From IMG/VR virus record IMGVR_UViG_2657245509_000010: a stretch of DNA of 11,242 nt; one strand, written 5' to 3'. The notes under the pieces are model-generated. The model was given only the letters and a program-made list of their open reading frames with translations, did no database searches and had not been told where the DNA came from. Both the position numbers and the translations under genes were made by a program. Shown here in pieces: positions 1 to 11,242 of this stretch. Each line of letters opens with the position of its first letter. The first letter of the stretch is position 1. This stretch comes from a virus. Its lineage: Duplodnaviria > Heunggongvirae > Uroviricota > Caudoviricetes.

Positions 1-32
1 CCGTAACGGGCCATAATTCCAGGAAGGACCCG
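1..32 (-). repeat. Terminal 32-bp repeat identical to 11211-11242; reverse complement resembles the cosQ-proximal sequence just upstream of lambda cosN
   Basis: Exact identity of window positions 1-32 and 11211-11242. Reverse complement 'cgggtccttcctggaattatggcccgttacgg' resembles the lambda right-end sequence '...ACGGGTCCTTTCCGGTGATCCGACAGGTTACG' (recalled from memory). Confidence 0.8.
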
Positions 33-65
33 ACGACACCAGACTATCAGAGCGATGGGGGCACA

Positions 66-347
66 ATGACAGAAGCCGAACTACTGGGATTAATCCGCCG
101 CGTCGCCGGAATCAGCCAGCAGCATGACGAACAGGCCACACAGCCGGACAGCGTGACCGCTGAAAATTATGTGCGTGTTGTAGCGGAAGTGATGCGCCGT
201 GATGGTATAGAACTTAATGGCGTTGATATGCGCAACATACGGAACCGCGTTCTTGAAATGCTGGCCTACAATCGCCGCGTTGAACTGTATCGGGAGAAAG
301 AAAAAATAACGTACCACTGGAAGAAGCCGGAACGGCTGCGGCGGTAA
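66..347 (+). CDS. Hypothetical protein (93 aa)
   Basis: ORF with a good Shine-Dalgarno ('tggggg') 5 nt upstream of the ATG at 66; no recognisable family by eye. Confidence 0.5.
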   Translation: MTEAELLGLIRRVAGISQQHDEQATQPDSVTAENYVRVVAEVMRRDGIELNGVDMRNIRNRVLEMLAYNRRVELYREKEKITYHWKKPERLRR

Positions 348-434
348 CTTGCTGATATTCCCGATAACGCAAAATTGCGCTGGCTACATCCTCACATCTG
401 AGGACTGTTAATCAGAAGGCCGGAATATATTCAC

Positions 435-457
435 AAACTACGAAATTTTCGTAGTTT
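435..457. repeat. 23-bp near-perfect palindrome AAACTACGAAA-T-TTTCGTAGTTT
   Basis: Read directly; one of several odd-centred palindromes in the 348-800 non-coding region (also 'cctcaatttgagg' and 'ggtcataatgacc'). Confidence 0.6.
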
Positions 458-807
458 AATTAATGGTCAGATTAATCGCTAACCCGCTGATATTTTCGGA
501 AACCTCAATTTGAGGAAGTCGGAAGCGTCACCCTTCATATTCTGAATGGTCATAATGACCACGCAGACCATCAAGGCAACCACAACGAACATCGTTACGG
601 TTGGAGCTTTTACCCCACTGGGGGAAAGGTATTACGATAATCATAACACCTACCGAACAGGTAAAACCCACCAGCCTGATTAACAGTTAACCGGAAAAAA
701 AATCCGGTAGCCCCGTTATGGGGATCCCCATATCGACATTAACGCCCCTCATGAATTGGTGCGCTTCCCCCTGGAAAGATTACCCGCCTGTATATTTCTT
801 GTGTCTA

Positions 808-868
808 TTTGTTCCACGTTGTTTCATACAGTGCACCGAACGGTGTAGTTAATGGTGTAGTCAATTTG
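808..868. repeat. Copy 1 of a ~65-bp imperfect direct repeat ending in tandem GGTGTAGTTAAT/GGTGTAGTCAAT motifs (842-865); candidate integrase arm-type binding sites
   Basis: 'ttgttccacgttgtttca...cggtgtagttaatggtgtagtcaat' recurs at 1032-1100; lies upstream of the integrase gene. Confidence 0.55.
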
Positions 869-1031
869 CTGTTTTTAGCACTTTTTGCAGTGTGGGTTGT
901 TTAATTAAATCAATGGGTTGCCTTGCTGTGGTGATAAAAGGACATATTTTATCAATTAGTGTTTTTTGCCGTTTCATAATGTTTCAGATTGTTCATTATA
1001 TTTTTGATTATAAACAGATTTGTGATTTTCC

Positions 1032-1100
1032 TTGTTCCAGCTTGTTTCACGTTGTAGCCCTTTGTGCAACGATCGGTGTAGTTAATGGTGTAGTTAATTG
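1032..1100. repeat. Copy 2 of the ~65-bp direct repeat with tandem GGTGTAGTTAAT x2 (1075-1098), directly abutting the integrase start
   Basis: Direct sequence comparison with 808-868. Confidence 0.55.
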
Positions 1101-1120
1101 TGATGACCGGAATCAAAATT

Positions 1121-2350
1121 ATGAGCAGAGCACTTAACAAACTGAGCGATACACAGCTGAGGAAAATCAACGGCACACCCGCCCAAAAAACAGCCTTTCT
1201 TAATGACGGTGGAAACCTGAGCGTCAGGCATTCAACCAGTGGCCTTTTAACCTGGTATTTCACTTACAGGGCCGGAACGGGAAGGGGGGCACCACCGGAA
1301 CGCATTAAGCTGGGAAATTATCCTGATCTGAGCCTGAAATCAGCCAGGGAAAAAGCCGCCCAGTGTCGCGCATGGCTGGCAGAGGGGAAAAATCCACGTC
1401 ATGAGCTTAATTACACCGTACAGGAAGCGTTAAAGCCGGTAACGGTTGGCGATGCGCTCACCTACTGGCTTGAGTCGTACGCAAAGGAAAACCGCGTGGA
1501 TTATGCCGCCCTGAAAAAGCGCCTTAATAATCACGTAATACAGCACATTGGTGCTATGCCGCTGGATAAATGCGAGCTACGGCACTGGCTGGCCTGTTTT
1601 GACCAGGTGGCAAAGCGAACGCCTGTTACTGCCGGATTCTTGCTACAGACGTGCAAACAGGCGCTTAAGTTCTGCCGGAGGCGGCGCTATGCAATCAGCA
1701 ACGTTCTTGATGATATGAGTGTGGCGGACGTTGGGAAAAAACCGGATATAAGCGAGCGTGTCTTAAGCACCAAAGAACTGGGCGAATTATTGCAGGCACT
1801 GGACAAAAAAATATTCTCCCCCTACTACATCGCGTTAATCCGCCTCCTGATTGTGTTCGGATGCCGGACGGTAGAACTGAGGTTATCGGAGATCAGCGAG
1901 TGGGATTTTACCGAAATGCTCTGGACCGTTCCGAAGGAGCACAGCAAAACGAAGGTAGCCATATTCCGGCCTATACCGGAAGCAATACTGCCGTTCATCA
2001 CGCAGCTGGTGGAGCAGAACAGGCACACGGGCTTATTGCTGGGGGAAGTGAAACAGGAGGCCAGCGTATCGCAGTATGGAAGATTAGCGCACAGGAGGCT
2101 TAATCACCCTCACTGGTCACTGCATGACATCCGGCGCACCTTTACAACCATGCTGAACGATTTAGGCGTTGATCCGCATGTCGTGGAGCAGCTTACAGGC
2201 CACCAGATGCCAGGAATGCAGCGAGTTTATAATCATTCCCGTTATCTGGATGCGAAACGCAATGCGCTGGATATGTGGACGGAGCGGTTAGGGATACTGG
2301 CGGGAACACATGAAAACGTAACCACGCTACCAGTAGCCAGAAGAAAATAA
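1121..2350 (+). CDS. int: Tyrosine site-specific integrase with arm-binding N-terminal domain (P4/PICI-type)
   Basis: N-terminus 'LSDTQLRKINGTPAQKTAFLNDGGNLSV...GNYPDLSLKSAREKAAQCRAWLAEGKNP' fits the arm-DNA-binding domain pattern; C-terminus has 'HDIRRTF' and 'RVYNHSRYL' as in catalytic tyrosine recombinase domains. Start is ambiguous (ATG at 1100, 1103 or 1121); the end is firm. Confidence 0.9.
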   Translation: MSRALNKLSDTQLRKINGTPAQKTAFLNDGGNLSVRHSTSGLLTWYFTYRAGTGRGAPPERIKLGNYPDLSLKSAREKAAQCRAWLAEGKNPRHELNYTVQEALKPVTVGDALTYWLESYAKENRVDYAALKKRLNNHVIQHIGAMPLDKCELRHWLACFDQVAKRTPVTAGFLLQTCKQALKFCRRRRYAISNVLDDMSVADVGKKPDISERVLSTKELGELLQALDKKIFSPYYIALIRLLIVFGCRTVELRLSEISEWDFTEMLWTVPKEHSKTKVAIFRPIPEAILPFITQLVEQNRHTGLLLGEVKQEASVSQYGRLAHRRLNHPHWSLHDIRRTFTTMLNDLGVDPHVVEQLTGHQMPGMQRVYNHSRYLDAKRNALDMWTERLGILAGTHENVTTLPVARRK

Positions 2351-2367
2351 TTTTTTTCGTGTTTTTT

Positions 2368-2383
2368 CAGTATGCGCATACTG
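2368..2383. repeat. Perfect 16-bp palindrome CAGTATGCGCATACTG in the int-alpA intergenic region
   Basis: Read directly. Confidence 0.6.
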
Positions 2384-2404
2384 GATATGCGAACAGATAC
2401 AACG

Positions 2405-2443
2405 TGCAACAATGAGCAACAATGTGGAACAACTACGAACAAG
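2405..2443. repeat. Short tandem direct repeats (GCAACAATG x2, then GAACAAC and GAACAAG); candidate protein-binding array
   Basis: Read directly in the 364-bp int-alpA intergenic region. Confidence 0.5.
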
Positions 2444-2714
2444 AGGCGAAAAAGCGTACGGATTTATAAGTAGCTGATTTTTAATGTGTTACTGGTTTTT
2501 TATACACTAGCGAATCACTCTTTAAAGAGCGAGAAAAAAGGCATGGAACAATATTTTATGCCTTTGTATTAACATGAATTTAAAAGATTTTATTCTTACT
2601 TTTTCATTTTCTGTAAATCATACATCCTCAGTATTTGCCATTCATCACTCTAGCGGGAACAATACGACACAATAAGACACCTGATGACTCTTTAAGAAAC
2701 GAAAGGGGGCAATA

Positions 2715-2903
2715 GTGTTAAGCACTGATCGGTTTATACGTGAAAAAGAATGCGAAAAACTAACCGGCCTTAGCCGTACGTGTCGCTACCGCCTGGAAAA
2801 GGCCGGACAATTCCCATCACGTCGTAAACTTGGCGGTCGTTCCGTTGGCTGGTCTTTATCCGAGGTTCTGGCCTGGAAGGATAGCTGCAAGGCAGTTCAT
2901 TAA
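2715..2903 (+). CDS. alpA: AlpA-family transcriptional regulator / excisionase-like protein (GTG start)
   Basis: 'LTGLSRTCRYRLEKAGQFPSRRKLGGRSVGWSLSEVLAWK' matches the AlpA/phage-excisionase HTH pattern; strong SD 'agggggc' 5 nt upstream of the GTG; located just after int as in Gram-negative PICIs. Confidence 0.85.
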   Translation: MLSTDRFIREKECEKLTGLSRTCRYRLEKAGQFPSRRKLGGRSVGWSLSEVLAWKDSCKAVH

Positions 2904-3049
2904 TCACGCTGGCGGCACACAGCCGCCACACATCAATCATCTGAACACAGAGCTATAACCATGAAGATTGAATATACGCCAGAACGTGGGCGGGGATTCG
3001 TTCGCCCTGGTGAGACTGGAAAACCACAAAATTGGGGTTTTTCAGGCAT

Positions 3050-3078
3050 AAAAAAAGCGGCCCCGAAATGGAGCCGCC
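3050..3078 (-). terminator. Probable rho-independent terminator for minus-strand transcripts (GC stem then T7 on the minus strand)
   Basis: Plus strand 'aaaaaaagcggccccgaaatggagccgc'; on the minus strand a gcggc/gccgc stem is followed by TTTTTTT. Confidence 0.45.
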
Positions 3079-3172
3079 TTTCTGAACAGATAACCCGCTG
3101 CGCCTTATGTGTATATGATCCCAAACATAAGCACGGGGATGATAGCCGCTATCAGGCTGGTGGGCAATGCTA

Positions 3173-3361
3173 TCAGTCTGGTTCAGTTCGTTGCCATACC
3201 TGCAATGGGCGCGTTTCCCTGTACTCTTTAAGGAATTGCTCAAGGGCAAAAGCACATGGCGCGAATCTTTCTGATTCATGCTCTATCTTTCTGCGCCGTC
3301 TTTTCCGTGCCGGTGATAATGTTTTGGTCAATTCTTTATCGGTCATTGTGTTGTCCTGCAT
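3173..3361 (-). CDS. Hypothetical small basic protein, downstream of the RHH gene on the minus strand (start uncertain; possibly ATG at 3346)
   Basis: ORF-track ORF; arginine/lysine-rich segment 'ARKRRRRK'; no strong SD, so low confidence. Confidence 0.3.
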   Translation of the reverse strand: MQDNTMTDKELTKTLSPARKRRRRKIEHESERFAPCAFALEQFLKEYRETRPLQVWQRTEPD

Positions 3362-3403
3362 AGCAATGCGCCGTAATACCTCACACCACGGCGCTGATAG
3401 TTT

Positions 3404-3577
3404 TTATCCTTTGGGTTCTATGCCGCGTTGCTGTAATTCTTTGCGGAGAACGCGTTTAATCCAAGTGGCTAAAGATGTGTCGCCATCGGCCTTAGCAGCT
3501 TCTTCTAGCTGCGCTCTGAAGTCTTCCGGTAATCGCATTTGGTATGGAGGCGAACGTTTTTCTAATGGTGTTGACAT
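3404..3577 (-). CDS. Arc/MetJ-type ribbon-helix-helix transcriptional repressor (57 aa); not in the ORF track
   Basis: Minus-strand translation 'MSTPLEKRSPPYQMRLPEDFRAQLEEAAKADGDTSLATWIKRVLRKELQQRGIEPKG' fits the Arc-family pattern (beta-strand 'YQMRLP', then two helices). Divergent from the rightward operon, with palindromic operators at its 5' end. Confidence 0.75.
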   Translation of the reverse strand: MSTPLEKRSPPYQMRLPEDFRAQLEEAAKADGDTSLATWIKRVLRKELQQRGIEPKG

Positions 3578-3645
3578 GGTAATTACCCTTTATTGCTATA
3601 CCTACATGGTAATTACCATTGTACTTGCCATTACACAAAAATCAA
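3571..3645. promoter_or_regulatory. Divergent control region with two copies of the palindrome GGTAATTACC (3578-3587, 3608-3617) and a minus-strand promoter (-10 TACAAT 3618-3623, -35 TTGATT 3640-3645); a perfect TTGACA on the plus strand at 3571-3576
   Basis: Both palindromes are preceded by 'ACAT' and are 30 bp centre-to-centre. One abuts the RHH start codon and the other abuts the putative -10, the classic autorepressor layout. The plus-strand -10 is weak. Confidence 0.6.
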
Positions 3646-3707
3646 CGCCCCGCAGTGCTGGGAACACATACGGGGCGTCTAACCAACAACGTAAACTAGG
3701 AGCCGTT

Positions 3708-3905
3708 ATGGTTGCCGTAAATCATATACCACACCTTGTACACACACAAACGGCCTTTGTGTGGCGTTTTCTGGCACTGAGTGCCGGAGAATCTCAAATC
3801 ATCCACGTAACCGCCTGGACGGAACGCGAAGCGCGTAACCGTTGCCCGTCCGGTTGTGTTGCTGTATTTGCCGCCCGTATTCGTCAGGAGGTGCGCCATG
3901 ATTAA
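3708..3905 (+). CDS. Icd-like (host cell division inhibitor-like) small protein, 65 aa
   Basis: 'FVWRFLALSAGESQIIHVTAWTEREARNRC...VFAARIRQEV' resembles the Icd-like proteins of enterobacterial P4-like and PICI elements (from memory). RBS 'aggag' 6 nt upstream. It is the true gene inside the chimeric 314-aa track ORF. Confidence 0.6.
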   Translation: MVAVNHIPHLVHTQTAFVWRFLALSAGESQIIHVTAWTEREARNRCPSGCVAVFAARIRQEVRHD

Positions 3906-4110
3906 TCTGTCACTTACTGACCTTAACCGCATTCAGTTTCGTGAGAAATTCACAGGGCAGCTACTGGTCAATGTGGATAAAGGTCGCGTGGTGTGTAATT
4001 ACCACTTACCAGATGAAGCAATTGTCGCCACAAGGGAATCATTACAGGAAATCACAAAACGTGCCGGAATGATTAACACGAATATTCAGGGGATGCTTTA
4101 TGCACAATAA
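3898..4110 (+). CDS. Hypothetical protein (70 aa)
   Basis: ATG overlaps the stop of the upstream gene (translational coupling); no family recognised. Confidence 0.5.
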   Translation: MINLSLTDLNRIQFREKFTGQLLVNVDKGRVVCNYHLPDEAIVATRESLQEITKRAGMINTNIQGMLYAQ

Positions 4111-4564
4111 AACCACACCGGACGCAGCCGCCGAAGCCATCAAAACGCTGATGCACGCGCTGATTGATATTTCTGTTATCGCGGACAGGGCACATAAGCA
4201 CGCCACCAGCGAAACAGAATATGCCGGTGCTTTCGTTCCTCACTCACTGGCTGTCATGCAATTTAGTGCTGATACGGCGCTGAATGAGGCCAAAGCTATC
4301 CTGATTGCTGATTGTGAAAATGGGGGGGTTATGCGTGATGATCGTTTTAATTCCCTGAAACAGGAATTTTCCGGCGTTCCTGATGATGCGGCTGATGCGC
4401 TTTCGTCAATGCCAGAACTTATTAGAGCGGCTTTTTTCTTACTTTCCACGAGAGAATATAAATCAACGGGGCTTGATGTACTGAATATCGCCGCCGATTA
4501 TGCGGAATATGTGGCAGAGGCGCGTTATAGAAGAAAATTTCCTGAGGATGTAAGCCATGCGTGA
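4100..4564 (+). CDS. Hypothetical protein (154 aa)
   Basis: Start overlaps the preceding stop; no recognisable motifs. Confidence 0.6.
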   Translation: MHNKTTPDAAAEAIKTLMHALIDISVIADRAHKHATSETEYAGAFVPHSLAVMQFSADTALNEAKAILIADCENGGVMRDDRFNSLKQEFSGVPDDAADALSSMPELIRAAFFLLSTREYKSTGLDVLNIAADYAEYVAEARYRRKFPEDVSHA

Positions 4565-4790
4565 TATTTACCACCAAACAATAGACCGCGCATTTCTTGC
4601 ACTTTCTCACAGTGAAAACATGATGGAAATATTGCGCATATGGCTTGAAACACTTGGCGACAATGAACGCGACAAACAAAAATCAAGAATTGCCACGGCA
4701 TTAATAACGCTTCTTGAGCCTGTAATAATGGAACTGCAAGAAATAGATCTATTGCACGACAGATATAAAGAACAGCACACCGGAGAATAA
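4557..4790 (+). CDS. Hypothetical protein (77 aa)
   Basis: 8-nt overlap with the upstream gene; SD 'gagga' upstream. Confidence 0.55.
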   Translation: MRDIYHQTIDRAFLALSHSENMMEILRIWLETLGDNERDKQKSRIATALITLLEPVIMELQEIDLLHDRYKEQHTGE

Positions 4791-4795
4791 AAATA

Positions 4796-5095
4796 ATGAA
4801 ACTTAAATATTCTGGCTTAACTGCCAGTGGCAACACTCACCCTAAATTTACGCGCGGTGATATTTACCGCGACCAGTACGGCGGCACGGTAATGATTAAG
4901 GGCGTGGAAGAACGGCGCGTAACCTACCGCCGTGAAGGTTACGAATATGATTGCGTGATGCCTGTTTATCAGTTCCGGCGTGATTTTTCTCTGGTACAGA
5001 CCGCGCCGCATAACGTGCCCACCAGCAACGCCAGGGCACGGGCAAACATCCAGAAGCTGAAAACCATGGTTAACGGATTCAGGGGCAAGAAATGA
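4796..5095 (+). CDS. Hypothetical protein (99 aa)
   Basis: SD 'ggaga' about 10 nt upstream; stop overlaps the start of the replication ATPase gene. Confidence 0.6.
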   Translation: MKLKYSGLTASGNTHPKFTRGDIYRDQYGGTVMIKGVEERRVTYRREGYEYDCVMPVYQFRRDFSLVQTAPHNVPTSNARARANIQKLKTMVNGFRGKK

Positions 5096-6492
5096 AAAGC
5101 GCACCGAACTTAAAAAAACAGCCTTACGACAAGATGACCGAAGTCATTATTTTTGCGGGTAGTGATGCCTGGGCACATGCGAAACAGTGGCAGGAACAGG
5201 ACGGGCGACTGGCTGGCGATAATGTGCCTCCCGTTGTGCTGGCTGATGATCAACTGGATGAACTGGCAGAACTGAGAATCATCGACGAGGGGCGCTATTG
5301 TGTCCGGCTGTACAAGGCAGGCCACATCAGGCCATCAAATATTAATGCCATTGCGCACAAGCTGGCGGCGGCGGGTGTAACTGATGCGAATTATTACCCC
5401 GAAGGGATGCACAGCCATATGCGGGAGAACTGGCGCGAATACCTGGAACGGGTGCGCGGGAAAGAGCCGGCGGAAGAAAAAAACCACCAGCGAAAAACCA
5501 CGCTACCGATGAGCGTTGGATCTACCGGATACGACACGCAACTGGATTACGTGGTTAAGGGGATTATTCCGGCGGTATCGCTATGCAGCATATACGGGGC
5601 TAGCGGGTCCTATAAATCATTCCTTGCCGGATCGTGGGCGTGCCATGTTGCCACTGGTCGCCAGTGGGGAGGCCGCAGGGTTGCACATGGTGCGGTTCTC
5701 TATGTGGTTGGTGAAGGCGGTATAGGTGTTCCGCGTCGTGTAAAAGCCTGGGAGGTTGTGCACGATGAGCAGGTGAAAAATCTGTATCTGGTAAACCGCC
5801 CCATCTTTCCGGCTGCCCCGCTTGATGTTGATGAAATGGTTATCGCTGCCCGTCAGGTGGAGCGGGAAACGGGTAAACCTGTACGCATGATTATTCTGGA
5901 TACGCTGGCGCGTTGCTTTGGTGGGAATGATGAAAATGATTCCCGTGATATGGGGGCGTTTATCCGTGGTTGTGACGAACTGAAACGACGCACAGGGGCC
6001 ACGGTGCTGGTGGTTCACCATTCCGGCAAGGATGAGACGAAAGGCGCGCGCGGTTCCAGTGCATTTCGTGCTTCGCTGGATGCTGAATACCGGATACGCA
6101 GGGAGGACGCAGGAAGCGAAGCGCTGGTTATCTCATGCACCAAAATGAAGGACGCGGAGGAACTCAAAGAAGCCGCATATGACTTACGCGTGGTGGAGCT
6201 TTTTACCGACGCTGACGGTGAATTAATCACGTCGCTGGTGGTGGTGGATGATCCGCGCCCTCCTGTTGAACTGGAGCGCATCGAGGAGGCAGGGAACAAG
6301 ACGGAAAACCATACCGCGCTATGGGGGTGCATCCGTTCACGCACACAGAACGGCGACAAGTGCACGATCCCGCTGTTACGTGATGACATGAAAAAGCTGG
6401 GGTATGAAATGAAAAACTTCCGGCGCTGGCTGTACAAGCTGGAAAAAGATGGGGTTATTCGTATCGATGGGGATGATGTAGCGCCGCTATAA
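5092..6492 (+). CDS. RepA/DnaB-like RecA-fold replication ATPase (satellite replicase-helicase) with a probable C-terminal winged-helix domain
   Basis: P-loop-like 'GASGSYKS', Walker-B-like 'MIILDTLARCFGG', and 'VLVVHHSGKDETKGARGSSAFRASLDAEYRIRRE' typical of RepA-like helicases; C-terminus 'WLYKLEKDGVIRI' looks wHTH-like; an iteron array lies immediately downstream. Confidence 0.8.
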   Translation: MKSAPNLKKQPYDKMTEVIIFAGSDAWAHAKQWQEQDGRLAGDNVPPVVLADDQLDELAELRIIDEGRYCVRLYKAGHIRPSNINAIAHKLAAAGVTDANYYPEGMHSHMRENWREYLERVRGKEPAEEKNHQRKTTLPMSVGSTGYDTQLDYVVKGIIPAVSLCSIYGASGSYKSFLAGSWACHVATGRQWGGRRVAHGAVLYVVGEGGIGVPRRVKAWEVVHDEQVKNLYLVNRPIFPAAPLDVDEMVIAARQVERETGKPVRMIILDTLARCFGGNDENDSRDMGAFIRGCDELKRRTGATVLVVHHSGKDETKGARGSSAFRASLDAEYRIRREDAGSEALVISCTKMKDAEELKEAAYDLRVVELFTDADGELITSLVVVDDPRPPVELERIEEAGNKTENHTALWGCIRSRTQNGDKCTIPLLRDDMKKLGYEMKNFRRWLYKLEKDGVIRIDGDDVAPL

Positions 6493-6684
6493 AAGTGAGG
6501 AGCAAAAGCGAGGGGGATAGAAAGAGGGCCAAAATTAGCCCGCTCTCCCTCACTTTTCGACCTGTATACATCCTCAAAAGTGAGGGGTAAAAAAATACTT
6601 ATGAAACACACACATAGAAAAACCGAAAATCCCAACTGCGACGAAGTGAGACGCTTGAAAAAGTGAGGCGAAAAAGTGAGAGGT
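6491..6684. repeat. Iteron array (at least six copies of AAGTGAG(G/A) in both orientations); putative replication origin
   Basis: Copies at about 6493, 6549 (inverted), 6579, 6643, 6660 and 6674, immediately 3' of the replication ATPase gene. Confidence 0.65.
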
Positions 6685-6692
6685 TGCGAGAA

Positions 6693-6944
6693 ATGACCCA
6701 AAAACGCAGAGACAGAACAGAGCCAAAATATAAAGCGTTAGACATGACTGAGCACACCTTAAAGGTGGCAATCAGAACGATAGACCGCCACACGCGGGAA
6801 GGATACGCGAAGGAACATCCCGACCTGATAAGCGCATTCATGACCACGGCGGCGGCAAACTTTGCCACGCTGACAGAACGGGAGATTGCCGAAGCGGAAC
6901 AGGTAACAACCATCAACGTTAAAACCGGAGAGGTGGAATTATGA
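6693..6944 (+). CDS. Hypothetical protein (83 aa; alternative GTG start at 6663)
   Basis: ATG with SD 'gagagg'; the upstream in-frame extension would overlap the iterons. Confidence 0.5.
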   Translation: MTQKRRDRTEPKYKALDMTEHTLKVAIRTIDRHTREGYAKEHPDLISAFMTTAAANFATLTEREIAEAEQVTTINVKTGEVEL

Positions 6945-7351
6945 CGGCACAGATAGCCGCTTACGGGCGGCTGGTGGACGACCCGCAGGTAAAACAGACC
7001 AGCAAGGGCACACCGATGACGCTGGCGCGTATGGCGGTATCTTTGCCATGCAGCCAGGCACAGGACGGACAGGCGACGTTATGGTTATCGGTCATCGCAT
7101 TTGGCAAACAGGCCGGCTTCCTGGCTAAACATCAAAAAGGCGATGTTGCCAGCGTATCCGGCACGATGCAGGTAAGCCAGTGGACCGGACAGAACGGAGA
7201 AACGCGGCAGGGCTGGCAGGTTATCGCAGACAGCGTAATCAGTGCCCGCGCGGCACGTCCAGGCGGGAACAGACGCAAAACCACAGGCACACAGGGTAAT
7301 CAGCCACCAGCGGGAGGCGATGACCCTTACGGTGATGATATTTCGTTCTGA
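6941..7351 (+). CDS. ssb: Single-stranded DNA-binding protein (SSB-like OB fold with acidic C-terminal tip)
   Basis: Glycine/proline-rich linker and C-terminal 'DDPYGDDISF', comparable to E. coli SSB '...DDDIPF'; OB-fold-like N-terminus; start overlaps the upstream stop. Confidence 0.75.
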   Translation: MTAQIAAYGRLVDDPQVKQTSKGTPMTLARMAVSLPCSQAQDGQATLWLSVIAFGKQAGFLAKHQKGDVASVSGTMQVSQWTGQNGETRQGWQVIADSVISARAARPGGNRRKTTGTQGNQPPAGGDDPYGDDISF

Positions 7352-7361
7352 GGGGGTGACG

Positions 7362-7634
7362 ATGGTACATGACCGCATAGCGGAGGAACTGGAGGCGAAA
7401 GGCTTTTACCGGAGGGCGGCGGCGCGATGGGGTGAAGTCATGCAGCTGGTGGAGACAGACAAGGAACGGCATCACATCACGATGCGACGGCTGGAATGTT
7501 CAAGGAAGGCACAGAGGGCACCGGAGCCGCCGGATAATTTCGGAGACCTGAAAAAGGCAGTCGATCGCACTTATGCCGAAATGGGTATAGATGGTGCTGG
7601 TGATGAAATATGGCGCAATTACCAGGACAGCTAA
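7362..7634 (+). CDS. PerC-family transcriptional regulator-like protein (90 aa)
   Basis: 'AEELEAKGFYRRAAARWGEVM' matches the PerC/Pch hallmark (LExKG-W/Y-RRAA-xW). The true start is the ATG at 7362 with SD 'gaggggg'; the longer track ORF (7242-) would overlap ssb. Confidence 0.6.
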   Translation: MVHDRIAEELEAKGFYRRAAARWGEVMQLVETDKERHHITMRRLECSRKAQRAPEPPDNFGDLKKAVDRTYAEMGIDGAGDEIWRNYQDS

Positions 7635-7640
7635 TCAAAC

Positions 7641-7664
7641 AGCCGGAGAAATCCGGCTTTTTTT
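7641..7664 (+). terminator. Rho-independent terminator (GCCGGA-GAAA-TCCGGC then T7)
   Basis: Stem-loop plus T-run directly after the perC-like stop. Confidence 0.8.
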
Positions 7665-7760
7665 GCACCAGTTGAAACGGTATGGCGCATTACCGGGTTT
7701 TCGTCACGGTCAGGCATAGTTACTATCTGAAACAAACAGACACAACAGAGGAAAAAAACA

Positions 7761-7985
7761 ATGCCGATGAAATTTGATGAGATATTAAAACAGCGTGATA
7801 AATACCATGCTGACAACATGGAGACGATGAGCATCAATGATTACCGCGCATTCCTGGAGACGGGCGCACTGATTGAAAAGGATCAGCATGGTTTTGTGAG
7901 ATGTGCTCTATCCGGTGAAATGCTGGCGGTAAATCCTGAACAGATAGATGCATTGATAGAATTTCTGAAAGAGATCAGAGACTGA
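7761..7985 (+). CDS. Hypothetical protein (74 aa), an isolated transcription unit
   Basis: SD 'gagga' upstream; flanked by terminators at 7641-7664 and 8005-8075. Confidence 0.55.
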   Translation: MPMKFDEILKQRDKYHADNMETMSINDYRAFLETGALIEKDQHGFVRCALSGEMLAVNPEQIDALIEFLKEIRD

Positions 7986-8004
7986 GCCAGCACACAGCAC
8001 ACAT

Positions 8005-8027
8005 AGCCGGAGCAATCCGGCTTTTTT
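8005..8027 (+). terminator. Rho-independent terminator (GCCGGA-GCAA-TCCGGC then T6)
   Basis: Variant of the same hairpin as at 7641 and 10278. Confidence 0.75.
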
Positions 8028-8033
8028 GCGCCC

Positions 8034-8075
8034 AAAAAAAGCCCGATAAGGTCAGAGGGTTCTTATCGGGCTTTT
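8034..8075. terminator. Second hairpin, possibly bidirectional (A7, 10-bp stem GCCCGATAAG/CTTATCGGGC, T4)
   Basis: Read directly; A-run upstream and T-run downstream. Confidence 0.6.
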
Positions 8076-8148
8076 GCATATGAGGTTTTTGGATGCACTG
8101 GCGTTCGTGATCGGGATAATCATTTCATAATTTGCAACATAACTCAAT

Positions 8149-8201
8149 ATCATTGCATAAAATGCAATTCTGATTATAATCAGGACTGGATAAACATCCA
8201 G
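8149..8201 (+). promoter_or_regulatory. Putative promoter of the capsid operon (-35 TTGCAT 8153-8158, 16-bp spacer, -10 TATAAT 8175-8180) embedded in three consecutive palindromes
   Basis: Palindromes ATTGCAT-AAA-ATGCAAT, CTGATTATAATCAG (contains the -10) and CTGGAT-AAAC-ATCCAG; first promoter-like signal after the double terminator. Confidence 0.55.
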
Positions 8202-8236
8202 TTATGATTTTTTTAGTCGAAGAGGAATTTCTTACT

Positions 8237-8443
8237 ATGGCTGAAGAGAAAAAAAGCGGTGTTTCGGTGTACATAAGCCCCGAAATCGTGGAGGTGCTCA
8301 AGCAGCGCCACAAAAAAAACTATGAAGCTGGCGTTGCGGCTGGACTGGATCCGCTGATGACGCCGGAGCCGTCGATAGGTTCACTTGTACGCTCTTATTT
8401 ACTTGCGGCGCTTGGGATGCATAAAAATTATGGGGGTGAATAA
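8237..8443 (+). CDS. Hypothetical protein (68 aa) translationally coupled to the major capsid gene (alternative start 8204)
   Basis: Stop and start overlap as TAATG at 8441-8445; position corresponds to where scaffold or head-accessory genes sit in head operons. Confidence 0.5.
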   Translation: MAEEKKSGVSVYISPEIVEVLKQRHKKNYEAGVAAGLDPLMTPEPSIGSLVRSYLLAALGMHKNYGGE

Positions 8444-9498
8444 TGGCAGGCAAAGCAACGGCACTTAACACTAACCAGCTTTTCATGTACCTGAATCGCG
8501 GGGATATTGCGGATTTTAAATTCAGCCCTCTGTTTACCACGCTGTTTTTCCCGAACGTGGCGACATTCAGCACGCAAAACATCATGCTGGATACCCTGGA
8601 CATTGAAGAAGTCACCATGTCGGCGTTTTGTTCGCCTATGGTGGGTAGCCAGGTTCAGCGCGATAAAGGGTACGAAACCAGCACAATCAAACCTGGCTAC
8701 ATGAAGCCAAAGCACGAAATCGATCCAACGAAAACCATCATGCGCATGGCTGGAGAAGATCCGGCACAGCTTAACGACCCTACCTATCGCCGTATGCGCC
8801 TGATTACTGGCAACATGCGCCGCCAGATAAACGCCATTAAGGCACGCGTGGAATGGCTGGCGGTGAATGCGGTAACGACCGGAAAAAACATCATTGAGGG
8901 CGAAGGCATAGAACGCTATGAAATCGACTGGAAAATACCGGAAAACTGCATCATAGAGCAGGCCAAGGGTAAAAAATGGTCCGAGCAGGATAAAGACATG
9001 CACGACCCAATCTATGACATCGAGCTTTATGCTGATCAGGCTGGTTGCCCCGCAAACGTCATGATTATGGGCGCTGAGGTATGGCGCACATTACGCAGCT
9101 TTAAAAAATTCCGTGAGCTGTACGATCTTTCCCGTGGTTCAGAATCCGCCGCCGAACTGGCCTGTAAAAACCTGGGCGAAGTGGTGAGCTTTAAAGGCTA
9201 TCTTGGTGATCTGGCCCTTATCGTCTATTCCGGCAAATACACTGACAGCGATGGTACCGAAAAATATTTCCTTGAGCCTGATTTGCTGGTCCTGGGTAAC
9301 ACCAACAATAAAGGGCTGGTGGCCTATGGTGCGATAATGGATCAGGAAGCGGTAAGAACGGGCGCAACACAAAACATGTTTTACCCGAAAAACTGGATTG
9401 AGGACGGCGATCCGGCGATTGAGTACGTGCAGACACACAGTGCACCGCAGCCGGTACCGGCAGATATTCGCAAATTTGTTACCGTCAAAATTGGTTAA
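8443..9498 (+). CDS. Major capsid protein, lambda gpE-like (HK97 fold family)
   Basis: Blocks 'KFSPLFTTLFF', 'PGYMKPKHEIDP', 'DPTYRRMRL', 'FRSFK', 'YPKNWIEDGDPAIEY' align with lambda gpE 'KFDPLFLRLFF', 'PGYVKPKHEVNP', 'DPAYRRRRI', 'FRSFK', 'YPKNWVTTGDPAREF' (recalled sequence). 351 aa against about 341 aa for gpE. Confidence 0.9.
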   Translation: MAGKATALNTNQLFMYLNRGDIADFKFSPLFTTLFFPNVATFSTQNIMLDTLDIEEVTMSAFCSPMVGSQVQRDKGYETSTIKPGYMKPKHEIDPTKTIMRMAGEDPAQLNDPTYRRMRLITGNMRRQINAIKARVEWLAVNAVTTGKNIIEGEGIERYEIDWKIPENCIIEQAKGKKWSEQDKDMHDPIYDIELYADQAGCPANVMIMGAEVWRTLRSFKKFRELYDLSRGSESAAELACKNLGEVVSFKGYLGDLALIVYSGKYTDSDGTEKYFLEPDLLVLGNTNNKGLVAYGAIMDQEAVRTGATQNMFYPKNWIEDGDPAIEYVQTHSAPQPVPADIRKFVTVKIG

Positions 9499-9510
9499 CG
9501 GGGGGATTCT

Positions 9511-9846
9511 ATGGACACTCCATACATTGAGTTATTTGCAGGCAGTCAGCAGGTATCCACGACGTTGGTACATTTTGCCGCTGATGCTGGCGTTATTCAG
9601 GAATTTACCCCGCTGATGCTGGCAGACAATGGCGAGTTTAAGCCGTGGGATGGTCAGGAATCTGGCAAGGCTGTTTATCTGACCTCGTACCCTGTGGACA
9701 CGTCAAAGCAGAAATCAGCACAGTGTTACAAGACGGGGATATTCAATATTGCCGCCGTTAACTGGCCTGAGAGCGTCGACACCGATGCGAAAAAATGCGC
9801 CGCCTTTGCGGGTTCCGGCGTATCCGTTCAGCCGCTGGCCCGATAA
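9511..9846 (+). CDS. Head decoration protein, lambda gpD-like
   Basis: 'TPLMLADNGEFKPWDG...KKCAAFAGSGVSVQ' aligns with gpD 'TPLMLDTSSRKLVAWDG...KKRTAFAGTAISIV'; 111 aa against 110 aa. Confidence 0.85.
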   Translation: MDTPYIELFAGSQQVSTTLVHFAADAGVIQEFTPLMLADNGEFKPWDGQESGKAVYLTSYPVDTSKQKSAQCYKTGIFNIAAVNWPESVDTDAKKCAAFAGSGVSVQPLAR

Positions 9847-9858
9847 GCAGGGGGAACG

Positions 9859-10272
9859 ATGGCAACGAATGAAAGCATCATGACGCTACCGCTGGCGAGT
9901 AAATTTAAAGTCGAAGCGCGGGCAATGGCTGACAGAGGTTTATCAACCTATGAGGCCGTATATCAACTAAACAAACTGGAAGAGCAGGACAAGCCGTGCG
10001 CTGATGCGATTATGGCGCTTCATGAGCATAAAGACTATCAGCCGCTGTTGCGTGCAATGGCAAACGTGCCTTGTATCGATGTTGGTACGGCTAAAAGCAT
10101 CCTTAGCATGACCATAGAGCAGGAACGTCCGAAGGTTGCGCCGGAACTTACCGCAGCCTTTGAAAACTTTATGGACATGCACAGCCCGCAAGCCGTATCA
10201 GCTGGCATGGCATACGATGGCAGAAACCAGGGCGATGACGGCGACATCGATCGCATACTGAAAACCATCTGA
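9859..10272 (+). CDS. Hypothetical protein (137 aa) between the decoration gene and cos
   Basis: Good SD 'aggggga'; no resemblance to lambda FI/FII by eye. Confidence 0.6.
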   Translation: MATNESIMTLPLASKFKVEARAMADRGLSTYEAVYQLNKLEEQDKPCADAIMALHEHKDYQPLLRAMANVPCIDVGTAKSILSMTIEQERPKVAPELTAAFENFMDMHSPQAVSAGMAYDGRNQGDDGDIDRILKTI

Positions 10273-10277
10273 GACAA

Positions 10278-10300
10278 GGCCGGAGAAATCCGGCTTTTTT
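10278..10300 (+). terminator. Rho-independent terminator (GCCGGA-GAAA-TCCGGC then T6), third copy of the hairpin family
   Basis: Immediately 5' of cos. Confidence 0.8.
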
Positions 10301-10368
10301 ACGGGTCCTTCCTGGAATTATGGCCCGTTACGGGGCGGCGACCTCGCGGATTTTCGCTATTTATGAGC
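10301..10368 (+). other. cos site (cosQ-cosN), lambda-like; predicted 12-nt cohesive end GGGCGGCGACCT at 10333-10344
   Basis: 'acgggtccttcctggaattatggcccgttacg|gggcggcgacct|cgcggattttcgctatttatga' against lambda 'ACGGGTCCTTTCCGGTGATCCGACAGGTTACG|GGGCGGCGACCT|CGCGGGTTTTCGCTATTTATGA' (from memory); located about 135 bp upstream of the Nu1-like gene. Confidence 0.85.
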
Positions 10369-10438
10369 CTTTTCAGGGTGGTGGTGGTGGTTTTGTTGTT
10401 TGATCTATCTTTATGAATGAAAAGGGAAAGATGCAAGC

Positions 10439-10476
10439 AATACACCAACCTGAAGCAGTAATTAAGTTGGTGTATT
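10439..10476 (+). promoter_or_regulatory. 11-bp inverted repeat AATACACCAAC-N16-GTTGGTGTATT abutting the terS start codon; candidate element-specific cosB R sites or translational control hairpin
   Basis: Read directly; sits where lambda has the inverted R2/R1 Nu1-binding sites before Nu1. Confidence 0.5.
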
Positions 10477-10477
10477 A

Positions 10478-11020
10478 ATGAAATCTCATCTGATGAACAA
10501 AAAAAACATGGCGAAAAGCTGCCGTGTAAGTGCGACAGCGTTCGACAAGTGGGGAGTAACTCCCGTTGAGCGTAAAGGCCGTGAGGCGTTTTATGATGTT
10601 GCCAGCGTGATAGAAAATAGGGTTAACAATGCAATTAGCCAGCTTATAAACGACAAAGGCGAGATTGACGATGATGAACTTTTACGAGTCAGGATCAGAT
10701 TACTGACAGCACAGGCAGAGGCGCAGGAACTTAAAAACGATCGCGATCGCGGTGACGTGATTGATACTGAGTTTTGCCTGTACGCGCTTTCAAAGCTGGC
10801 GAGTCAGATTTCATCAATCATGGACAGCCTCCCGCTTACTATGCAAAGGAGCTTCCCACAGATTACCCCCGCCATGCTGGACAGGCTTAAAAGGGAAGTG
10901 GTTAAAGCCTGTAATGCCAGTGCCAGAGTTGCCGACAACCTCCCACAGATACTGGCTGATTACTTGAAAGAAACAACCGGAAACGTACCGGAAAAGTTGC
11001 TACAGAAGAAAGGCGAGTAA
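10478..11020 (+). CDS. Terminase small subunit, lambda Nu1-like
   Basis: 'LTAQAEAQELKNDRDRGDVIDTEFCLYALSKLASQISSIMDSLPLTMQRSFP' aligns with Nu1 'LTRAQADAQELKNARDSAEVVETAFCTFVLSRIAGEIASILDGLPLSVQRRFP'; N-terminus 'NKKNMAKSCRVSATAFDKW' against 'NKKQLADIFGASIRTIQNW'. 180 aa against 181 aa. Start may be the ATG at 10493. Confidence 0.9.
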   Translation: MKSHLMNKKNMAKSCRVSATAFDKWGVTPVERKGREAFYDVASVIENRVNNAISQLINDKGEIDDDELLRVRIRLLTAQAEAQELKNDRDRGDVIDTEFCLYALSKLASQISSIMDSLPLTMQRSFPQITPAMLDRLKREVVKACNASARVADNLPQILADYLKETTGNVPEKLLQKKGE

Positions 11021-11039
11021 CAGACGCGCAATTATTGAA

Positions 11040-11242
11040 CAAAAATGAGAAAGGATCTGATAATGGCATTTTCTGGCTAAAATGCCTCGTGTCAGATCCT
11101 TTCTTTTTTTAATATTTTCATTGTTAAACAGTCTGTTACAGAGAAGAAGATCGGATCTGACTTTTGCCGGAAAATTCTCATAAACAGATAAAAACCGCGA
11201 GGTCGCCGCCCCGTAACGGGCCATAATTCCAGGAAGGACCCG
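11040..11242 (-). other. Second cos site in inverted orientation (cosN reverse complement at 11200-11211) with a full-length lambda-like cosB arm; cosQ part is the terminal repeat
   Basis: Reverse complement reads 'cgggtccttcctggaattatggcccgttacg|gggcggcgacct|cgcggtttttatctgtttatgagaattttccgg...tcttcttc...', tracking the lambda left end 'CGCGGGTTTTCGCTATTTATGAAAATTTTCCGG...TTCTTCTTCG' further than the 10301 cos does. Confidence 0.8.
11048..11110. terminator. Nested inverted repeat AGAAAGGATCTGA...TCAGATCCTTTCT followed by T7; likely terS terminator and, on the other strand, lambda-like cosB R2/R1-type sites
   Basis: 13-bp arms at 11048-11060 and 11093-11105 with an inner GGCATTTT/AAAATGCC hairpin; the reverse complement aligns with the lambda cosB region 'GAAAAGAAAGGAAACGACAGG...CCTCTGTCGTTTCCTTTCT'. 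Confidence 0.6.

Follow-up and report, generated by a model that had tools for sequence, protein, structure and literature searches.

The stretch of DNA analyzed here, in the following termed the window, comprises 11,242 nucleotides and encodes, as assigned with Pfam and PHROGs, a tyrosine integrase with an Arm-DNA-bind_3 domain (1121..2350, plus strand; RefSeq start, the ORF being open from a GTG at 1100), AlpA (PF05930; 2715-2903), an AAA_25/RepA-type helicase (5092-6492), an SSB (6941-7351), a PerC-family regulator at the position of the RgdR-type genes (7362-7634), a lambda gpE-like major capsid protein (8443-9498), a gpD-like decoration protein (9511-9846), a 137-aa protein resembling the C-terminus of a head maturation protease, possibly Nu3-like (9859-10272), and a full-length Nu1-type small terminase of 180 aa (10478..11020, plus strand; PF07471, phrog_57, and synteny with CFT073). 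Genes for a portal, TerL, a protease, tail or lysis proteins were not found in the window. The features expected of a PICI are largely present, namely a size of ~10–15 kb (here 11,210 bp), an integrase gene placed terminally next to a specific att site whose core is duplicated at roxA/phoQ, AlpA downstream of int and followed by the replication module, a packaging module near the right end lacking a full structural or lysis set (only gpE-, gpD-, possibly Nu3- and Nu1-like genes), and two cos sites combining phage-like cosQ and cosN with divergent cosB. What is missing is an Rpp redirecting the helper TerS, as the respective slot is occupied by the Nu1 homolog.

Some further observations concern the gene inventory itself. 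The 314-aa ORF at 2961-3905 is probably not a gene; RefSeq has only Icd-like fragments there, i.e., a pseudogene equivalent to 2961-3554 and a 65-aa gene at 3708-3905. The 137-aa ORF matches positions 495-567 of the 583 positions of phrog_53 (head maturation protease). In lambda-like phages, the C-terminal part of this protease corresponds to the nested scaffold (Nu3), and homologs of capsid, decoration and scaffold proteins may thus be encoded by an island that has no portal of its own; the 137-aa gene is apparently missing from the island of E. coli JNE151685. Furthermore, a GCCGGAG-N-AATCCGGC hairpin followed by a T run occurs in three copies (7637-7666, 8001-8030 and 10274-10303), which look like intrinsic terminators, and the third of them continues straight into the cosQ of the first cos site.

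The island belongs to an already described satellite family. EcCICFT073, the prototype of the Gram-negative cos-type PICIs (PMC6092414, PMC6739421), resides at the same roxA-phoQ site with the same att core and has the gene order of the window, i.e., int, alpA, replication genes, SSB, PerC-type regulator, gpE-like, gpD-like and 137-aa genes, a slot gene and a 93-aa gene. Differences are found in the replication protein, which is a primase in EcCICFT073 versus the AAA_25/RepA-type helicase of the window, in the cosB sequences, and in the slot: the 144-aa c1503 of CFT073 is rppA, whereas the 180-aa Nu1 homolog takes this position here, with undetectable similarity between the two proteins. An assignment of the slot protein as Rpp was consequently rejected, since it lacks similarity to CFT073 RppA and is instead a homolog of lambda Nu1 with 36% identity over the full length (E=1e-33); a comparison with solved structures yielded no significant match. 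Some PICIs are known to have a terS homolog in place of Rpp (PMC6092414). Like P4, the island is an integrative satellite of ~11 kb with a P4-type integrase (Arm-DNA-bind_3), an AlpA/Vis-type regulator and a cos site, relying on the structural genes of a helper (PMC6092414). In contrast to P4, it features lambda-type instead of P2-type cos, two cos sites, and capsid, decoration and Nu1 homologs, and Gram-negative PICIs are treated as distinct from P4 (PMC6092414).

The Nu1-homolog gene is framed by two cos sites in opposite orientation. The lambda-type cosN GGGCGGCGACCT is located at 10333..10344 on the plus strand (cos1, upstream of the ORF) and at 11200..11211 on the minus strand (cos2, downstream), the latter being identical to lambda cosN at 12 of 12 positions according to Fig. 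S5 of PMC6092414, and the cosB sides face one another across the ORF. In cos1, the cosQ-side flank covers 10302..10332 and the cosB side 10345..10477 (both plus strand), the cosB side being unrelated to its cos2 counterpart past ~+32 from cosN. The cosB side of cos2 (11021..11199, minus strand) contains three copies of a GTCAGATCC/GGATCTGAC motif, which are putative TerS-binding sites. The two sites form a 76-nt inverted repeat of 91% identity (left arm 10302..10377, right arm 11167..11242) with an exact 48-bp core, CGGGTCCTTCCTGGAATTATGGCCCGTTACGGGGCGGCGACCTCGCGG, at 10302-10349 and 11195-11242. In both, CGGGTCCTT precedes cosN by 31-23 nt and can be aligned with lambda ACGGGTCCTTTCC at the position of cosQ. 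The similarity to lambda comprises the complete cosN, GGGTCCTT at the cosQ position and ~30 bp past cosN, as well as the presence of a Nu1-type gene behind cos, as seen after cos1. Unlike lambda, however, the window has two opposed cos sites, of which cos2 faces the 3' end of terS, and the lambda R-site sequences are absent; cos2 carries the three GTCAGATCC-type repeats and cos1 other repeats.

This arrangement is common in the family. Exactly one cosN on the plus strand followed by one on the minus strand 524–868 bp further on was found in 47 of 80 relatives in viral contigs, and most of the remaining ones are truncated contigs. EcCICFT073 likewise has an oppositely oriented pair around its slot gene (cosN(+) upstream and cosN(-) downstream of c1503); in the supplement of PMC6092414 (Fig. 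S5), 'CFT073 cos.1' is the plus-strand site and 'CFT073 cos.2' begins with TCGTCGGGTCCTTCCTGGAATTATGGCCCGTTACGGGGCGGCGACCT. The main texts of PMC6092414 and PMC6739421 leave the opposed orientation of these sites without comment. A further difference from EcCICFT073 is the exact match between the cosQ arms of cos1 and cos2 over 31 nt in the window, compared to the usual 9 nt. Such a 31-nt exact arm was observed in only 3 of 43 distinct cos pairs, namely the window and two relatives (L048 and L073), and looks like the result of gene conversion between the two cos sites. Regarding phages, the part of cos2 close to cosN (window 11126-11217) is 77–80% identical to the cos of Stx1a-converting and other lambdoid phages and 88% identical to that of phage 21, and cos1 (10322-10366) is 96% identical to PhiR12 phages. 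Judging from these matches, Stx1a-converting, lambdoid, phage 21- and PhiR12-type phages represent candidate helper specificities.

A direct repeat is found at the very ends of the window, where positions 1-32 equal 11211-11242 base for base (CCGTAACGGGCCATAATTCCAGGAAGGACCCG) in a self-comparison. This is the longest prefix identical to a suffix, and its extension is blocked by an A at base 33 and a C preceding 11211; by our own arithmetic, the chance of such a 32-mer match in 11 kb is in the order of 1e-12. Subtraction of the overlap leaves 11,210 bp of unique sequence. On the minus strand, the 32-mer reads CGGGTCCTTCCTGGAATTATGGCCCGTTACG, then G, followed by GGCGGCGACCT, and together with its continuation GGCGGCGACCTCGCGG it aligns to lambda cos through cosQ and cosN into the cosB-proximal region. 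The copy at 1..32 (minus strand) is therefore the cosQ-side flank of cos2 and exactly matches the beginning of the 'CFT073 cos.2' printed previously, i.e., the cosQ side of cos2 of EcCICFT073. A third copy lies inverted at 10302-10333, on the cosQ side of cos1, consisting of the cos1 flank plus base 10333. If the geometry of lambda, which is established knowledge, is applied to cos2, base 1 of the window would pair with the first base of the 12-nt cohesive end and would lie 1 nt from a lambda-type nick. The initial annotation had recognized the same 32 bp at both ends as the cosQ side of an inverted cos and had placed the boundary of the repeat within 1 nt of the cosN nick; the exact match and the lambda alignment bear out the former, and the cosN 12-mer at 11200-11211 the latter, with lambda geometry assumed. 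The observation of the terminal repeat is therefore correct, though ordinary.

How the window relates to the bacterial chromosome became evident from complete genomes. At least 80% of the window is present in 364 of these. Many E. coli O157:H7 chromosomes carry a 100% identical island of 11.2 kb between roxA and phoQ, and the window is this island in circularly permuted form. In strain EC4115, base-level mapping revealed window 940-11242 followed directly by 1-949, again with 100% identity (L001, 4001-14303 and 14272-15220, respectively), giving an integrated span of 11,220 bp, that is 11,210 plus 10 bp. These 10 bp represent the core GGACATATTT, which bounds the integrated island as attL after roxA and as attR overlapping the stop codon of phoQ. 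At the point where the ends of the window meet, the chromosome has a single 32-mer (L001, 14272-14303) in addition to the inverted copy in cos1. Consistently, a synthetic empty site consisting of the left flank, one core and the right flank matched without interruption in 4,822 of the 5,426 genomes, among them O157:H7 strains with 100% identity.

In the window itself, this core is located at 940..949 (plus strand), as supported by the mapping, the empty attB and the same core in CFT073, and marks the position at which the chromosome is joined upon integration. It is flanked by two tandem pairs of the arm-type site GGTGTAGTYAAT, of which four copies exist in the window versus 0.06 expected: the P-arm pair (842..865, plus strand) is found at the attR end in the chromosome and the P'-arm pair (1075..1098, plus strand) at the attL end beside int. 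The chromosome has the two pairs apart, at attR and attL, respectively, whereas they surround the core contiguously in the window, in line with the attP-like region with arm-type repeats upstream of int proposed at the outset. The contiguous attP is an indirect sign of excision. Independently of this, a TTGTTCCACGTTGT-type motif present in both att arms (797-823 and 1032-1056) recurs inverted in the int-alpA intergenic region (2398-2444) and may be a shared site for a regulator or a recombination directionality factor.

A bare terminal direct repeat would also be the mark of attL and attR in a chromosomal segment, and target-site duplication by the 32-mers had been the alternative considered initially. 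This option is refuted and retains practically no probability: the element is bounded by GGACATATTT at roxA/phoQ, attP is contiguous, and the window lacks any roxA or phoQ sequence. At this place, the chromosome has the 32-mer only once, inside the island, so it is no target-site duplication; the repeat found at the junctions is GGACATATTT. The initially preferred reading, a circle of ~11,210 unique bp with a 32-bp overlap, is in contrast supported by both the permutation in EC4115 and the single chromosomal 32-mer. A true target-site duplication by the 32-mer, with arm sites divided between the two ends of the window, had been named at the outset as refuting the circle, and neither was seen. 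The window shows a complete excised satellite genome rather than a fragment of the chromosome.

The exact attP junction (32 nt) had no match in the viral, metagenome and genome contig collections, no second copy of the exact circle was recovered from them, and, among contigs that encode the exact TerS, the island is integrated in each of the ten longest. The plasmid collection contained no identical small circle, but only large records with integrated copies and a distantly related circular record of 10.8 kb. Among the side observations, a circular 'plasmid' of 10,790 bp in a finished E. coli genome (NZ_CP148328.1), which is devoid of a lambda-type cosN and carries int, an HTH regulator, an Icd-like gene, DUF4222, a primase and a protease-capsid fusion, looks like another satellite caught in the excised state. 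One might further consider that the record derives from a chromosomal tandem duplication of the island or from an integrated copy circularized in silico, as a tandem array also contains an attP-type junction and the chromosomal copies are 100% identical to the window. Such an origin appears quite improbable, however, with no tandem copies among the loci inspected and no cause for an in silico join to open at the edge of the inverted repeat with an overlap of 32 bp.

This edge turned out to be the key to the ends of the window. When a de Bruijn graph was modeled on the 11,210-bp circle for various k, repeated canonical k-mers at k ≥ 25 came only from the exact repeat shared by cos1 and cos2. 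With k=33, positions 11195-11210 are the starts of the repeated k-mers at cos2; the last of these (11210-11242) ends on the final base of the window, and the k-mer after it, beginning at 11211 and thus at base 1 of the window, is the first unique one. If a walk around the circle is opened at this single branch node, it yields exactly the window with an overlap of k-1 = 32, and an equivalent node-centered graph with k=32 begins and finishes on the branching 32-mer; no other k tested reproduced both ends. Both ends of the window lie exactly on the outer edge of the cos1/cos2 inverted repeat. A single parameter, k, explains the length of the overlap, its start and its end, and from this geometry we infer an assembler working with k of 33 or 32. 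The circle was presumably opened at this position because the 48-bp exact inverted repeat is the sole repeat of at least 25 bp and hence the sole branch point.

Taken together, we consider it likely, with a probability of roughly 85%, that the window is the O157:H7 allele of an excised island of the EcCICFT073 family and that its terminal 32-mers are one piece of DNA doubled by the assembly of a circular path. This reading combines the observed repeat, permutation, att sites, cos homology and graph geometry. The template would have been a circle or a head-to-tail concatemer of the excised island, on which the assembler presumably closed a circular path and left an overlap of k-1 (or k), the contig starting at the first unique k-mer past the repeat and ending at the last repeated one. 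The copy at 11211..11242 (minus strand), being the same physical sequence as 1..32, would accordingly be the overlap closing the circle. It should be considered that a head-to-tail tandem or concatemer yields the same contig as a monomeric circle, and that a start 1 nt from the expected cosN nick is also obtainable from a cos-cut end. The proximity of the boundary to the nick is best explained by assembly and not by terminase cutting, because the cos1/cos2 homology sets in at cosQ, at a distance of 31 nt from the nick, and k-1 equals 32 by coincidence. The coincidence with the nick had been taken as an argument in favor of the circle; this argument falls, as both ends lie on the graph branch at the edge of the inverted repeat instead.

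If the ends of the contig were physical ends of virion DNA cut at cos2, the overlap would have to stem from a minority of uncut or re-annealed molecules. The position of base 1 just 1 nt from the lambda-type nick would fit, as would the unbroken run through attP, which is compatible with a sample rich in excised DNA, and cloned cos2 of EcCICFT073 supports transfer by lambda and phi80 (PMC6092414). We nevertheless regard physical ends as unlikely. The contig would be expected to start at 11200 if the 5' cohesive end had been filled in and at base 2 if it had been trimmed, but not at base 1, and the location of the other end at the outer edge of the inverted repeat as well as the overlap of 32 are left unexplained, whereas the k=33 graph gives both ends exactly with one parameter. 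In addition, the window is contiguous over the cos2 nick (11167-11242), implying that uncut cos2 was present, and an independent circular relative opens at att and not at cos. The same form would also be seen in a linear packaged genome with genuine terminal redundancy, like the direct terminal repeats of T7-like phages, but this is highly improbable for an element with a lambda-type cos, a 12-nt cosN and a Nu1-type small terminase and with a repeat ending at a branch point of the assembly graph. Lambda-type cos sites and Nu1-type terminases give cohesive and not duplicated ends.

The independent relative is a metagenomic element of 11,098 bp (IMGVR_UViG_3300045988_152974; 87–93% identical), which represents a closed circle as well. 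Its terminal overlap of 119 bp ends at the position of the att core rather than at cos. This break is likewise at a natural branch point, between integrated and excised forms, with an overlap of k-like length. Its core sequence is unlike GGACATATTT, which suggests integration at a different site. Overlaps of circular contigs annotated as 'DTR', a signature by which viral contigs are recognized as complete circles, share the properties seen here, i.e., an exact identity of prefix and suffix, a k-like length, a single copy in the molecule and a location at a branch point. The only peculiarity of the window is that its branch point is a biological inverted repeat, which makes the overlap resemble a cos end.

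Previous work on the family offers a framework for how the island might operate. Helper phages induce PICIs of this family via AlpA, Int excises the island to a circle, in this case at GGACATATTT, replication gives rise to concatemers and the helper terminase packages from cos (PMC6092414, PMC6739421). For EcCICFT073, spontaneous excision and circularization were demonstrated by PCR with outward primers, together with covalently closed circles and concatemers (PMC6092414). Both of its cos sites function when cloned, and cos1 is needed for transfer, with a complex of RppA and TerS recognizing its cosB; deletion of cos2 even increases transfer (PMC6092414, PMC6739421). In the O157 allele, the Nu1 homolog of the island and the large terminase of the helper could together recognize one cosB; with the lambda arrangement as a guide, the cosB of cos1 is the most likely one, cos1 being located immediately in front of the Nu1-homolog gene. 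The second site, cos2, could possibly be used by the helper terminase directly, because ~75 nt near its cosN are 77–88% identical to phage 21, Stx1a-converting and lambdoid phages. Following the lambda model, the 32-mer would be the part of cos2 from cosQ to the nick and would serve to end a packaging run arriving on the minus strand from the side of 33 to 10301; the helper terminase would read it upon termination of the run and nick the adjoining cosN.

Apart from the ends of the window, the segment between the two cos sites deserves attention. The orientation of this cassette (window equivalent 10345-11199) is polymorphic, as both orientations exist among near-identical islands and finished genomes. 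A query with the flipped junction led to E. coli JNE151685 (NZ_AP027258.1), whose island occupies the same site with the small-terminase gene on the opposite strand; here, positions 3561-4094 of the locus (L094) are the reverse complement of window 10709-11242 at 92% identity, joined at cosN to an unchanged left cosQ arm. Within the 524-bp spacing class, a 512-bp cassette is found in one orientation in five relatives (L074, L079, L081, L090 and L043) and reverse-complemented at 99–100% in four others (L077, L080, L085 and L087), with unchanged flanks (95–100%) except for the right side of L080, where the contig runs out. Both types of junction are present in finished genomes with 99–100% identity and full coverage. 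Orientation is not monophyletic: L079 is nested in a clade of the opposite orientation with a divergence of 1.4–2.4%. At least two switching events are implied. When the cassette of L087 is flipped at both cosN sites, L079 is reproduced with zero mismatches at the junctions, and the breakpoints are therefore bounded to the 25-bp core cccgttacg-GGGCGGCGACCT-cgcg. The cosQ arms remain with the flanks and the cosB arms travel with the cassette.

In the sample of relatives examined, gene-bearing cassettes nearly always have one orientation. The cassette of the window itself was not found flipped at high identity in any of the 5,426 genomes; three full-length matches (93–95%) represent a different cassette type. 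Between the same flanks, spacing classes of 524, 530, 625, 739, 759, 867 and 950 bp occur among the relatives, which suggests exchangeable cassettes for packaging specificity. Segments bounded by inverted repeats and occurring in both orientations are also known from the isomers of plastid inverted repeats and from Hin/Gin/Cin. Unlike Hin/Gin/Cin and the shufflon, which have a dedicated adjacent recombinase, the cassette of the relatives is without an invertase gene or domain in or beside it, containing only terS, rpp or no ORF. It further differs from such flip-flop segments in that the repeats are packaging sites and the breakpoints fall into the cosN core. The literature searched contained no description of an inversion between paired cos sites, a prior description still being possible.

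The plain explanation for this switching would be homologous recombination inside the shared core. A more speculative and rather doubtful option is that a double cut by terminase frees the cassette with Rpp or small terminase plus cosB, leading to inversion or module exchange, either driven by terminase or stimulated by the cut. Going by the sequences, cutting of both cosN sites would leave the two ends of the cassette with the same 5'-GGGCGGCGACCT overhang and those of the backbone with its complement. The freed cassette could then re-join in either direction or be swapped for that of another island or phage. If true, this would explain why cos2 is conserved despite its deletion raising transfer, why identical flanks enclose cassettes of many sizes, and why there are two orientations, with the breakpoints restricted to the 25-bp cosN core.

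For the record itself, these findings mean that the true genome comprises 11,210 bp and that the terminal 32 bp should be trimmed before annotation. More generally, a biological inverted repeat can set the break point of a circular contig and imitate a packaging end, which calls for caution wherever contig termini are taken for cos or pac ends. RgdR-type genes of O157 islands have been linked to the control of type III secretion (PMC6092414), and the O157 allele in its excised form, carrying a PerC/RgdR-type regulator with this link, bears on the mobility of the element harboring the regulator. The invertible cassette bounded by cos sites may be the sole part that merits follow-up, and its occurrence in two orientations opens a testable route to the so far unexplained function of cos2 in these islands.
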